Virus record (IMG/VR): IMGVR_UViG_2671180458_000004
Length of the DNA: 21,008 nt
Source of the DNA: a virus
Taxonomy: Duplodnaviria; Heunggongvirae; Uroviricota; Caudoviricetes
Reading direction: 5' to 3' (one strand)
Position 1 is the stretch's first letter. The number at the start of each line of letters is the position of its first letter. The position numbers were made by a program, and so were the translations under genes. Positions 1,414-18,009 of this stretch are shown piece by piece. The notes beneath the pieces are model-generated. The model had not been told where the DNA came from and searched no databases. It saw nothing but the letters and a program-made list of their open reading frames with translations.

Positions 1414-2361
1414 TTACAGATAATCCGCGACAACCAGCTCCAGCTTGCCCTTCATCTCGTTAGAGACGGTTGCGTTTCCGTCTGCGAACAGTTCACGCTC
1501 CAGCAACTGCACCGCCTGTTTTTCCAGCGAGGTGGGGACAACAATATGGGTGGGTTTAATGCCGAGTTTGCGGCCACCGTCAGCGGTAAATTCGCGCATG
1601 GCTGACCAGCCGTGCCACAGTGCATCCAGCGTCAGCGGTGACTGCATCATGTAGGCCATCTGCCAGAAGCCGTAGCCCACATTGCGACGGGCGGATGCAC
1701 CAAACACAAATTCGTTATCGGTGAATGCGCGACCTTCATCGACTTTGGTCTGGGCAACCAGTTCAGCCTTACGGCGATCCTGATAAATCAGCGGTTTTAC
1801 CGCGCGTGAACAGTCAAGCAGATACCAGGCCGGACCGCTGTAATCCGCCTGTGCGCCGACAGAGCCGGTTTTTGCCACAAACATATTGCTGACCATCTGC
1901 GCATCCCCGGAGCCATCCACTTTGGGGTAAACCGGATGTTCGGTATCAAAGAAGTTCTGACCGTCATAGCAGGCCGCACTGATCCCGTCACGCAGGGCAG
2001 CAAAGACCAGCTCATCCGGTTGTACCGCCGCAGCGCGCCCCATCTCCTGAAACAACGGGGAATAAATACCGAGGTTGTCGTCTTCGAAGTCATCGCGGCT
2101 AATGGCGACAGTGCCTTCAAAAGTTTTGTTCACGATGGCATAGCCATAGGCTTTCATCTTCTCGATGACGCGGGAGCCGATCCACTCACGGAACTGCGGG
2201 AACTGCCCCAGCCAGCCGTAGGTGTTGGATTTCGAGGTGGAGGGCACGGTCATCGCAATTTTTTTGTACTGCGACGGGGCCATGGACATCCCGGCCTGAA
2301 AATCAGAACGGTAGCCCGTCATCAGGGCGGTGATCATCGCCGGTGTAATCGGGGTAGGCAT
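1414..2361 (-). CDS. T: Major head (capsid) subunit, Mu gpT family
   Basis: 315-aa ORF. The N-terminus MPTPITPAMITALMTGYRSDFQ...YGWLGQFPQFREWIGSR matches the Mu T / Mu-like prophage major head subunit family from memory. It lies directly after the I protease/scaffold gene. Confidence 0.9.
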   Translation of the reverse strand: MPTPITPAMITALMTGYRSDFQAGMSMAPSQYKKIAMTVPSTSKSNTYGWLGQFPQFREWIGSRVIEKMKAYGYAIVNKTFEGTVAISRDDFEDDNLGIYSPLFQEMGRAAAVQPDELVFAALRDGISAACYDGQNFFDTEHPVYPKVDGSGDAQMVSNMFVAKTGSVGAQADYSGPAWYLLDCSRAVKPLIYQDRRKAELVAQTKVDEGRAFTDNEFVFGASARRNVGYGFWQMAYMMQSPLTLDALWHGWSAMREFTADGGRKLGIKPTHIVVPTSLEKQAVQLLERELFADGNATVSNEMKGKLELVVADYL

Positions 2362-3494
2362 TATTGCATTTCCTCTTTCATTTTCAGGAACTCGGCTTCG
2401 GTTTTACCCAGCAGATGGGCAGCGGCGATATCTTCAGCCGACAGCGCAGCGGTGGCAGTCTTTTTATCCGGCACGGTCACGGTGTCGGTCTGAAGGCCGG
2501 TCAGGGCCGCAACCGGCTGTCGGGCGTCAAGCTGTGCAGAAAGTGCCGCAACACCAATCTGCCCACCCAGTTGTTCCAGATAGCCGCGTTCGCTTTTGAA
2601 GATGCGCCCTTCGGATTCAGCCTTGTCCAGCACCTGCTCCAGTGTGGTGCTGCCGTGCTGTGCCGACAGCGCAACGTATTCGGTACGCAGGGCGTTATAC
2701 GTTTCAACGGGCACGTATTTCGTCAGATCAATACTGCCTCCAGCCGGTGTGCCTTTTGCGGTTTCCAGCTCTGCCGACAGACTGGCGACCTGTGTTTTCA
2801 GGTTGTCGTGTGCATCCGCACGGGTTTTGATCCCGGTGAGTGCAGACAGCGCCGCCGTGCCCAGCTCCGGCGTAAATTCGTCACCGTCAGCCACGGTCAG
2901 ACCGAGCGCCGTCAGCAACTGGCGTAATTGCTCATTCATGGGGTGTTGCTCCTGAGAAGGGGAAACTACATAGAGATCGTCAGCACTGAGTGCTGCGACA
3001 GGGTTCATACCCGTAATACCTGGATCATTCGTCAGGGAAGCCATGCGCAACAGGTAGGGTTCCCCGGTGTCAGCGAAATAATGCATATACGCAGACAGAT
3101 AGGCATATTCACGGTCATCAATATGTTTTTGGGCCTGCGGCGTCCATTCAGGTTTAATGAAAATCCCCTGACCCTCACGCCATTCGATGTTTTCCGGCTT
3201 AACCCAACCTGCGGCAATGGCCTTAAATCCGTTTTTCTGCGCATTCATGGAGTGATGGTCATAATCAATCAGTAACGGCTGATTCAGGGCGGAAAGCCCG
3301 GCTTTCATCCGGTTGCAGGCGGATTCGTTAATCAGCCAGCCTTCAGCCGGTTTTTCCGGGCGACCGTCACGGGCCTTTACCCTGCCTGCTGGCAGTAACT
3401 GACACCATCCGTCGCCGGATGCAGTCAGCGAAGCTGAAAGCACGGCTAAACCAGAGGGGCGATTTGCGTCTTTTGGGTGATTTTCTGTCTTCAT
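2361..3494 (-). CDS. I: Head maturation protease / scaffold, Mu gpI family (probably with a nested C-terminal scaffold product as in Mu I/Z)
   Basis: 377-aa ORF between the G-like and T-like genes. The N-terminal region (WCQLLPAGRVKARDGRP...LLIDYDHHS) is typical of the Mu I family. The Ala/Leu/Glu-rich C-terminal half looks like scaffold. The nested product is inferred from Mu. Confidence 0.85.
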   Translation of the reverse strand: MKTENHPKDANRPSGLAVLSASLTASGDGWCQLLPAGRVKARDGRPEKPAEGWLINESACNRMKAGLSALNQPLLIDYDHHSMNAQKNGFKAIAAGWVKPENIEWREGQGIFIKPEWTPQAQKHIDDREYAYLSAYMHYFADTGEPYLLRMASLTNDPGITGMNPVAALSADDLYVVSPSQEQHPMNEQLRQLLTALGLTVADGDEFTPELGTAALSALTGIKTRADAHDNLKTQVASLSAELETAKGTPAGGSIDLTKYVPVETYNALRTEYVALSAQHGSTTLEQVLDKAESEGRIFKSERGYLEQLGGQIGVAALSAQLDARQPVAALTGLQTDTVTVPDKKTATAALSAEDIAAAHLLGKTEAEFLKMKEEMQ

Positions 3495-3669
3495 ACCGGC
3501 AGCATAAGCCGGGAATTTTCAGGGCGGGTTTTGCGGGATTTCAGGAAGTATTTTCAGGGAAAAATGCAAAGGCGCTTCACGCAGATTTTAAAGCCCGTTA
3601 AATACAGGTTAGAAAATCACGACACGCGCCTGAAGGGGGTAAGGTAATGCATTTGCATACCTTAAACAA
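3495..3669 (-). promoter_or_regulatory. G-I intergenic region: candidate late promoter (Mu P_I position) and candidate strong gyrase site position
   Basis: 175-nt non-coding spacer in an otherwise overlapping operon. It holds an imperfect hairpin at 3641-3663 (aaggtaatgca tt tgcatacctt). Three copies of aTTTTCAGGg-like repeats sit at 3514-3524, 3537-3546 and 3549-3560. A 5-bp hairpin (ccggc/gccgg, 3497-3513) lies just before the I start codon. In Mu, both P_I and the central SGS map between G and I. Confidence 0.45.
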
Positions 3670-4143
3670 TTAAGGCGTTTCTGTGGCCTTTTTAAAGCGT
3701 TTTCTGATTTCGTCCATGATCTCCTGCTCTGCCACCTGATCAAAGCCCATATACGGGCGTGCACCAATGGCCGCCGGTCCCGGTGGCATACCGGGCAGGC
3801 CACCCCACTGATGAATGGCCGCATAAGGCTCATTTGATCCAATCAGCGCCCAGGTGTCGCCATAATCCGTGGTCAGGCGTCGGGCCAGATCGCCGTTCAG
3901 CGTCAGGATTTTGCCGGGCATGTATCCCTTACGGGTACGCCACTTGCGGTAAGGATCTGACCAGTCATGCCAGCGTTCGCCGTCCGGCTCTTTTTCCTGT
4001 TCAAACGCCATTTCTGAGGATGACAGAAGGCTGGACGCCACACTGCGGGCCAGGTCTTTTCCGCCACCCACAAACTGAAGCCGGGCAAAGACCCGCTGGA
4101 GACGCGTAACGTCAACAACGACAGCGGCATCAATGGATGACAT
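3670..4143 (-). CDS. G: Virion morphogenesis protein, Mu gpG family
   Basis: 157-aa ORF with GGAGG 6 nt upstream of the ATG. The sequence ...WHDWSDPYRKWRTRKGYMPGKILTLNGDLARRL...PYAAIHQWGG is typical of the Mu G / phage virion morphogenesis family. Synteny is F-G-I. Confidence 0.85.
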   Translation of the reverse strand: MSSIDAAVVVDVTRLQRVFARLQFVGGGKDLARSVASSLLSSSEMAFEQEKEPDGERWHDWSDPYRKWRTRKGYMPGKILTLNGDLARRLTTDYGDTWALIGSNEPYAAIHQWGGLPGMPPGPAAIGARPYMGFDQVAEQEIMDEIRKRFKKATETP

Positions 4144-4181
4144 ATTGCCTCCGCATAAAGGATGAATATAAAATAAACAGG

Positions 4182-4264
4182 CGGTCAGTGTACGCTTAAC
4201 TGGTAAAGTCGGTGCCTGCCTCCGGGTGGATCATGTATGCGGGTTCGACCCCCGCCACTGACCG
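4182..4264 (+). other. tRNA-like structured element in the F-G spacer (not a canonical tRNA)
   Basis: A perfect T-arm, GCGGG-TTCGACC-CCCGC (4239-4255), is directly followed by a strand (4256-4264) that pairs with 4182-4190 over 9 bp. U8/A9-like TA follows the 5' strand. The D-arm is plausible, CGCT/GTCG with one mismatch and a GG-containing loop (4193-4211). No 5-bp anticodon stem with U33 can be drawn in 4212-4238. Confidence 0.3.
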
Positions 4265-11397: not shown

Positions 11398-11435
11398 GTT
11401 ACGCTGTCTCATGATGTTCTCTGAGTCAGCGTAAC
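11398..11435 (-). promoter_or_regulatory. Perfect 9-bp inverted repeat immediately upstream of the endolysin start codon
   Basis: gttacgctg (11398-11406) and cagcgtaac (11427-11435) are perfect complements separated by 20 nt. On the minus-strand mRNA the 3' arm ends 1 nt before the lys AUG. This is either an RNA hairpin around the ribosome binding region or a dyad protein-binding site. Confidence 0.45.
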
Positions 11436-11467
11436 GGTGAAGGAAAGGCGGCAGGCTTTGCGGAATA

Positions 11468-11893
11468 TCAGAAAAGTGGCGGTTGCGTTCTTGCCAGATG
11501 CAGACGGCGCTGTTCGCGTATGACGGTATAAATCTGGGTTTCTGACATCCGGTAATGGCGGCGAAGGGATTCAATTTTCTCGCCCCGGTCCCAGCGCGAA
11601 AATATCTCATTGTTTCGCAGCTCGGCAAAGAGAGATTCCCCGACCGGCAGGTAATAACCCCGTCCGCCCATATAGGCTGCCTGAGCCGCAGCCACCTTGC
11701 GTGCCAGTTTACCGGCCAGTACCGGCTCAATCCCCTGACGCTGAAGTTCTGCGCCAGTGACTTCAACCAGTTCTGACAGGGTCCGCGGCCAGTTCTTTTT
11801 GAGAACATCATCAGGGATGTCATCAAGGCGGTCGATAAGGGCGTGCAGTTGCTCACTGTCACCACCAAACATGCTCATCTGAGTTTCTGCCAT
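11468..11893 (-). CDS. Mor/C-family transcriptional activator (middle/late gene activator)
   Basis: 141-aa ORF. The C-terminal HTH region LRNNEIFSRWDRGEKIESLRRHYRMSETQIYTVIREQR matches the Mu Mor/C family pattern. It lies directly upstream of the lysis and late genes. Confidence 0.85.
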   Translation of the reverse strand: MAETQMSMFGGDSEQLHALIDRLDDIPDDVLKKNWPRTLSELVEVTGAELQRQGIEPVLAGKLARKVAAAQAAYMGGRGYYLPVGESLFAELRNNEIFSRWDRGEKIESLRRHYRMSETQIYTVIREQRRLHLARTQPPLF

Positions 11894-11962: not shown

Positions 11963-12472
11963 TTAACGGGGAAGTGATTTTTCATACTGCCTGCAAACGG
12001 CGTCATACCCCATCAGCGTGCGTTCGGGCATTCCCATCGCGGCCAGCATTTTGCGGCGGTGCCATCGCTTGAGACGCTCCAGCACATCTGAGGCCAGGGC
12101 GGGGTGTTGCTCCAGCCACTGCCAGTTTGCCACACCTTCGCCGCCGTTTTGCGCGGCCGTCTGCGATTTCACCCAGCGGTTAAGGGCGGTTTCCGCACCA
12201 TCAGAGATAAAGCCCTGCCGGTGCATCACCTTCCAGATGGCGCGAATTTTAGCGGTCACCGTACCCGGTTTTAAGGCCCGGTTAACCGGGTTCTGACGCA
12301 CTTTAAAACCGCGTTTTTTGAAAACATCCAGCACGCGGGACAACTCATCCGGTGACATATCCCGGCAGCTGGTTTTGCCGGTGGCTGCCAGCAGCACGAA
12401 TGTATAAGTCTCATCATCCAGGGCAAGCTCGCGCTTTGCCACATGAATGGCGGATATCAGTTTTCCTCTCAT
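11963..12472 (-). CDS. gemA: GemA-like regulatory protein (Mu gp16 family, DUF1018-type)
   Basis: 169-aa ORF. The N-terminus LISAIHVAKRELALDDETYTFVLLAATGKTSCRDMSPDELSRVLDVFKKRGF matches the Mu GemA/gp16 family from memory. It is adjacent to the Mor-family gene as in Mu. Confidence 0.8.
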   Translation of the reverse strand: MRGKLISAIHVAKRELALDDETYTFVLLAATGKTSCRDMSPDELSRVLDVFKKRGFKVRQNPVNRALKPGTVTAKIRAIWKVMHRQGFISDGAETALNRWVKSQTAAQNGGEGVANWQWLEQHPALASDVLERLKRWHRRKMLAAMGMPERTLMGYDAVCRQYEKSLPR

Positions 12473-17731: not shown

Positions 17732-18009
17732 CCTCTGGTCCTCGTTCTGTTTGGATAACTGACCCGGCGTCTGACCTCACGGCAGAACCGAATCATGGCA
17801 TTAAAGGCTTCTTCCTCCGTCACCGCTTCCGGTATCCCCGGAACCAGTAACTGCTCCTGTTCATCACGTCCATGACGCGCCATAACCTCAATCACATGCC
17901 GTACTGTGGCAGGCTTTCCGGCAACTATCGGCAATGCACCTTCCGGCAGGACGTAACCCAGTTCAATGAGACCGCTCGACCACGCCCACGCAATTAGATT
18001 TCGTTTCAC
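17728..18009 (-). CDS. Hypothetical early protein
   Basis: 93-aa ORF packed into the operon. IAWAWSSGLIELGYVLPEGALPIVAG is reminiscent of small conserved ORFs in Mu-like early regions, but I cannot name a family. Confidence 0.55.
   Translation of the reverse strand: MKRNLIAWAWSSGLIELGYVLPEGALPIVAGKPATVRHVIEVMARHGRDEQEQLLVPGIPEAVTEEEAFNAMIRFCREVRRRVSYPNRTRTRG

Follow-up and report, generated by a model that had tools for sequence, protein, structure and literature searches.

The DNA analysed here, referred to as the window, is a stretch of 21,008 nucleotides, and it is a Mu-like prophage that is read on the minus strand. The T, F, portal, lysozyme, Mor/C-family activator and GemA genes identified with Pfam follow the Mu order, and all of the genes around the spacer considered below lie on the minus strand, a point on which the preliminary description of this DNA was silent. 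The spacer itself comprises 175 nt (3495-3669) between a G-like gene and an I-like gene. Within G, the window retains only ~70% identity to Mu. The features of the region, which include a putative strong gyrase site (SGS) and a putative homologue of the Mu late promoter P_I, are as follows.

2361-3494, minus strand: I-like protease/scaffold gene (PF10123, E=4e-89)
3492-3494, minus strand: start codon of I, the A at 3494 being the predicted transcription start (Mu numbering of +1)
3501-3506, minus strand: -10 hexamer TATGCT of the putative P_I homologue, without a -35 (aligns with the Mu -10 CAAACT)
3517-3523, 3539-3545 and 3552-3558, minus strand: three CCTGAAA repeats (TTTTCAGG-type), with four A-tracts ~11.7 bp apart
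3527-3544, minus strand: predicted C-like activator box CTGAAATCCCGCAAAACC, centred at about -43.5 (by alignment with the Mu P_I C site CTCAAATAGCATAACCCC)
3568-3636, no strand: putative SGS right arm with putatively phased A/T-rich units GATTTTCTAAC, TGTATTTAACGG and CTTTAAAATC (a homologue of the right arm in Mu)
3640-3664, no strand: imperfect palindrome or hairpin, interpreted as the predicted gyrase G-segment core (RNAfold and palindrome I3)
3670-4143, minus strand: G-like virion morphogenesis gene (PF05069, E=1e-33; 54% identical to Mu G)
11454-11471, minus strand: second predicted activator box CTGATATTCCGCAAAGCC, belonging to the lys promoter, with a -10 TACGCT at 11428-11433
11468-11893, minus strand: C-like late activator gene (Mor/C family, PF08765), whose product is presumed to act in trans on both boxes

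The window is 97% identical to the Mu-like prophages inserted in the Stx phages LC727881 and LC727895; these prophages, transposed into an Stx2c-converting phage (LC727881) and an Stx1a-converting phage (LC727895), are its nearest database relatives. A match to the G-I region was found in 272 of 5,426 complete E. coli genomes, in 228 of them across most of the region, and the majority of these matches are relatives at ~90% identity, for example the O157:H7 prophage. The prophage family is thus a common one, and it sometimes resides inside Stx phages. Its member in strain Sakai, the Mu-like prophage Sp18, was placed at NC_002695.2 5040971-5079729 (38,759 bp), with the start of I around 5059409 and lys around 5051516. 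The window represents a sister lineage of Sp18 that carries a different I allele: a mosaic boundary lies at the spacer (window ~3100-3494 compared with the relatives), the first 390 nt of I exist as two alleles, and the window groups with strain PO06021, not with O157/Sakai. Across six close relatives, 92% of G is invariant, compared with 54% of the start of I.

Among the known elements of Mu are reportedly the SGS and, as a part of it, a right arm. The Mu GenBank record annotates, in the gap between G and I, a gyrase cut site 20 nt past the G stop, a predicted terminator and the late promoter P_I, which bears out the background given in the preliminary description, namely that a gyrase site and P_I both lie between G and I. 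According to a 2023 review (PMC10052514, with reference to Oram & Pato 2004, J Bacteriol 186:4575), the SGS of the Mu-like prophage of Sakai is the only tested alternative gyrase site able to replace that of Mu, and, following this review, we take the site reported to be functional in Sp18 to be its G-I spacer. A single strong quinolone-induced cleavage by gyrase and a need for the site in timely replicative transposition are likewise reported for Sp18. The window spacer matches the Sp18 spacer throughout the 103 nt past the G stop (3669-3567), and the two are ~96% identical overall, with all seven differences falling within the promoter-proximal 72 nt. The same spacer also occupies the same central position in both, at 47-48% of the prophage length. 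The prophage ends lie outside the window, and this position was mapped through the 97%-identical LC727881 insert and Sp18; the predicted site falls at 47% of Sp18, at ~48% of the LC727881 insert (39,968 bp) and at 48.7% in Mu.

The SGS of Mu likewise occupies the middle of the genome, in the gap that separates G from I, and the offset of its cut site from the G stop is matched in the window by alignment. The spacers of Mu and the window share a block at the same offset, 48-75 nt past the G stop, which reads CGTGATTTTCTAACCTGTATTTAACGG in the window and CGGGATTTTTAAACCGGTATTTAACGG in Mu. The local alignment of this block scores 34, a value reached by none of 2000 shuffles (mean 16.3, maximum 30). 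Identity to the Sp18 spacer over 103 nt, a right-arm block at the Mu offset and a central location together support the preliminary suggestion of a candidate strong gyrase site, and argue that the spacer holds a central SGS homologous to the experimentally characterised SGS of Mu and Sp18. This element is already known, and a site that is the same as that of Sp18 adds no new biology. Among DNA sequences that draw in gyrase so that a mobile element is organised for its transposition, the SGS is the best-studied example. A surrogate gyrase score, which counted matches to a published 133-bp consensus, was discarded, as it ranked the true Mu SGS only ~215th-245th of 73,170 positions.

The homology to the Mu right arm spans ~3636-3591 in the window. 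In an alignment of nine phages, which includes prophages of Citrobacter, Erwinia and Kluyvera and one from an Enterobacteriaceae genome and in which G is 52-72% identical, conservation within the spacer is highest in this block and peaks at 3640-3621 and 3615-3591. A profile of the right arm matches 80 of the 90 Mu-like loci drawn from two collections; the best matches are all on the gene strand, they begin 23-43 nt past the G stop in all but one locus (where the value is -6), and they extend to phages in which G is only 41% identical. The consensus of the family consists of three TTTAAACG-like units with spacings of 21 and 11 nt. Compared with Mu, the first of these units is degenerate in the window, where it reads CTTCAGGCGCG. 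No invariant run in the 1.2 kb compared among the six close relatives is longer than the 68 nt at 3635-3568, and 99% of the right arm is invariant, against the 92% of G. RNAalifold finds no shared structure over the block, with 0 shared pairs across six lineages, and this places the constraint on the DNA. The A/T periodicity of the right arm, a weakly informative measure, lies at the ~85th percentile in the window and at the 92nd-96th in Mu.

In structures of gyrase with the Mu SGS, the 49 bp from about +18 to +66 relative to the cut wrap the C-terminal domain of GyrA; removal of the right arm abolishes the activity of the Mu SGS, and the region wrapped by this domain is reported to be essential (PMC11626157, PMC13284261). 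The conserved block of the window coincides with this wrapped region of the Mu right arm. A phased TTTAAACG block in a fixed position offers a simple sequence handle with which SGS right arms can be found and compared, down to 41% identity in G, and this fixed offset is a modest addition to what is known of the SGS.

Between the G stop and the right arm, RNAfold pairs spacer positions 5-14 with positions 19-29, corresponding to 3664-3640 of the window, and a repeat search returns the same palindrome. The imperfect hairpin of the preliminary description is therefore present, although it starts 5 nt past the G stop and not 7 nt as had been stated. By its offset from the G stop, a 4-bp staggered gyrase cut is predicted at ~3654-3649, which is the dyad centre of this hairpin; the Topo-Seq fragment is centred on Mu 17876-17879. 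The core around the predicted cut shows little similarity to that of Mu, from which it differs both in its unrelated sequence and in being an imperfect palindrome. A role of the hairpin as a terminator was ruled out by the lack of a U-run after the stem. Since, in addition, the substitutions found in the hairpin in relatives are not compensatory, it is better read as the symmetric core of a gyrase site than as a terminator.

P_lys, P_I, P_P and P_mom are reportedly the C-dependent late promoters of Mu. Promoters of this class have a 16-bp element centred at -43.5 and a -10, with no -35 (Jiang & Howe 2008, PMC2582627). The four Mu late promoters of the annotated record align by a CATAAC(C)CC box and a -10 hexamer, and the predicted box of the window matches the Mu P_I element column for column. 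The distance from the start of the box to the -10 is 38 nt at both the I and the lys promoter of the window, at all four Mu late promoters (with the P_lys anchor moved by one base) and in four or five other lineages. A sigma-70 scan revealed no full two-hexamer promoter in the spacer. The gene at 11468-11893 lies directly upstream of lys, and its product shares 39% identity with Mu C (E=4e-35), compared with 27% for Mor. In all of these respects (a -10 without a -35, an element at -43.5, the 38-nt register and a C-family gene beside lys) the window resembles the Mu late promoters, from which it differs in the core of the box (CATAAC in Mu, CCGCAAA in the window) and in the -10, here TATGCT.

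The second box provides an internal comparison. The preliminary description had noted that a motif at 3523-3540 resembles one upstream of lys at 11447-11466, and this likeness holds: the 18-mer CTGAWATYCCGCAAARCC occurs with 0 mismatches only at the sites upstream of I and lys, both in the window and in Sp18, and the local alignment of the two segments scores 25, a value reached by 10 of 3000 dinucleotide shuffles. Among sub-lineages of Sp18-type phages, whose activators are ~100% or ~84% identical, the intervening 20 nt diverge but the box and the -10 are invariant; the scan for C genes behind this footprint recovered only Sp18-type and Mu-type phages. A third or fourth late promoter was not found in Sp18 beyond chance, whether by the 18-mer with up to 4 mismatches, by the cores CCGCAAA and ATYCCGC or by a half-box and -10 in register. 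The element is thus shared only in part, by the I and lys promoters, and the box has been found at only two promoters in the window and Sp18, whereas Mu has four. By inspection the halves of the box, CTGAAA and CGCAAA, are more like direct repeats than a dyad, and the left half is equally poor in Mu P_I. The alignment with the Mu P_I element, the register and the C-like activator encoded by the phage uphold the earlier proposal of a late promoter in this spacer, and support an assignment of its I-proximal half as a C-type late promoter that is a clear homologue of Mu P_I, with the binding of the activator as a prediction.

One Mor/C-family gene was identified in the window, between gemA and lys, and it is C-like; no separate Mor gene was found among the window genes. 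With a single C-like gene and no Mor, phages of this family may have a shorter version of the early-middle-late cascade of Mu.

Unusually, there is no space for a 5' leader downstream of the predicted -10. TATGCT is followed by 6 nt (GCCGGT) and then by the ATG of I, with no Shine-Dalgarno sequence. The same arrangement, a -10 followed after 6-7 nt by an ATG without a Shine-Dalgarno sequence, is found in at least four diverged lineages, among them that of the window and those represented by Citrobacter, L056 and L061/62. The I promoter of the window differs in this respect from that of Mu, where, as in Kluyvera, Erwinia and related phages, there is a leader of 29-35 nt with a GAGCAGG-type Shine-Dalgarno sequence. 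These observations suggest a leaderless mRNA for the head operon, which would be a new proposal and a modest addition. We give about an even chance to the specific prediction that, in Sp18-type phages, the A of the I AUG (3494) would be the first base of an activator-dependent transcript and that translation of the protease/scaffold would proceed on an mRNA without a leader. The EHEC papers examined report no transcription start for Sp18.

A perfect 5-bp G+C inverted repeat (CCGGC...GCCGG, 3496-3500 and 3508-3512) brackets the -10 before the I ATG, and its conservation extends through the close family. Only read-through transcripts would contain this repeat; the predicted leaderless transcript would lack it.

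Judged from these alignments and registers, the spacer is most likely a cis-acting region of two modules, an SGS and a P_I homologue, inherited from the ancestor that Mu-like phages have in common. The first module would be the central SGS at ~3669-3568; on its left it probably reaches into G, so that the 3' end of G would serve as its left arm. Host gyrase would sit with its cleavage core over the imperfect palindrome, close to 3651, and the A/T-rich, putatively phased right arm at ~3633-3585 would wrap around the C-terminal domain of GyrA. Gyrase bound at this site would supercoil the prophage processively, and this supercoiling would help to unite both prophage ends for assembly of the transpososome and replicative transposition, as shown for Mu. 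The second module, at ~3545-3494, would be the homologue of the late promoter P_I. A dimer of the C-like activator would bind CTGAAATCCCGCAAAACC near -43.5 and would thereby let sigma-70 RNA polymerase use TATGCT without a -35, and transcription of the head operon, of which I is the first gene, would start from the A of the I start codon, give or take a base or two. Within this scheme the gyrase cleavage position, activator binding, the transcription start and leaderless translation are the parts that we infer.

The conserved block could also be read as part of an ordinary region between two operons, with a terminator for lys to G followed by the promoter of I, in which case it would be kept as a terminator hairpin and not for gyrase. 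In Mu, TransTermHP does predict a terminator that covers this block; in the window, the fold of the spacer is more stable than that of its shuffles (z = -4.25), and an inverted repeat (3584-3598/3604-3618) encloses the block. The Mu terminator has no counterpart in the window, however, where the gene strand holds no intrinsic terminator, and the 0 shared pairs across six lineages would leave at most possible small stems in differing registers. What is conserved is primary sequence with phased TTTAAACG units, and the site of Sp18 is reported to replace the Mu SGS functionally (PMC10052514). We therefore regard this explanation as improbable. A different emphasis would make the three CCTGAAA repeats the main functional feature of the spacer, as iterated sites for a regulator, either extra half-sites for the activator or sites for a repressor. 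In favour of this, the three copies fall within 42 nt, against ~3 that would be expected across all of the window, the A/T phasing of this stretch is the strongest of the 21-kb window, and the middle copy belongs to the activator box; but the outer copies vary even among close family members and the lys promoter has one copy only, which makes such a role very improbable. It is hardly credible that the spacer encodes a small protein or a small RNA, for instance a minimal gene against host defences at the anti-CRISPR junction. The junction is a known insertion hotspot, a 42-aa ORF ('31.5') is placed in the spacer of D108 and a 117-aa ORF is inserted here in an Edwardsiella relative, yet the spacer shows conservation in blocks and registers, not codons, and neither its reading frames nor Rfam, as set out below, offer a candidate product.

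CCTGAAA is over-represented in the window as a whole (11 copies against 3.1 expected, with 0 of 100 shuffles reaching 11), and the three direct repeats pointed out in the preliminary description are real; as a conserved feature, only the middle copy stands. This copy forms the left part of the activator box and is the sole one conserved in relatives, since the first copy reads CCCTGGAAGC in Sakai and CCCTGTCAGC in other relatives, and the third copy varies. The segments 3517-3538 and 3539-3560 form a 22-nt tandem pair with 73% identity. The strongest A/T phasing in the window, at 3493-3541, is given by the outer copies and may be incidental. The second-strongest A/T helical phasing is found at 12237-12320, inside the gemA-like gene.

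With regard to coding capacity, the gene strand of the spacer has no ORF of at least 24 aa, the only one being a 23-aa ORF with a TTG start, and the plus-strand ORFs of 56-60 aa overlap the 5' end of the I coding sequence. No Rfam family was detected inside the spacer, and the earlier statement that no ORF is present agrees with these results. In Pseudomonas Mu-like phages (JBD30, DMS3 and others) anti-CRISPR loci have the G homologue on one side and the protease/scaffold gene on the other (PMC3993853); this is the same junction and the location that the preliminary description had given. Whereas the Pseudomonas loci carry ORFs, the junction in the window consists of cis-acting DNA only; an acr-aca locus, with small ORFs and an aca regulator, was not found at the G/protease junction, and the hotspot is empty, as had been proposed.

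The junction is occupied in a prophage of Edwardsiella anguillarum (L014 1981-2656), in which the G-I gap measures 677 nt instead of the usual ~175-215. The insertion is AT-rich, and the 117-aa ORF that it carries (2159-2512) reads in the opposite direction and belongs to no Pfam family. An SGS-like block remains beside G, and the insertion lies between this block and I. Mu-like phages of enterobacteria thus share this insertion hotspot, and the two modules are separable. The D108 annotation (L006 684-812) of a 42-aa 'putative phage protein 31.5' overlaps with the right arm of the SGS and probably does not correspond to a real gene.

On the other side of G, the gap between F and G (4144-4264) contains a tRNA-like element at 4184-4263 on the plus strand, antisense to the phage genes. 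It matches the Rfam tRNA family with 31 bits (gathering score 29, E=4e-5), with good acceptor, D and T arms and an anticodon region of 24 nt instead of 18, and ARAGORN makes no call on it. The region diverges in Sakai Sp18, and in three relatives RefSeq annotates a 'tRNA-OTHER' at this position.
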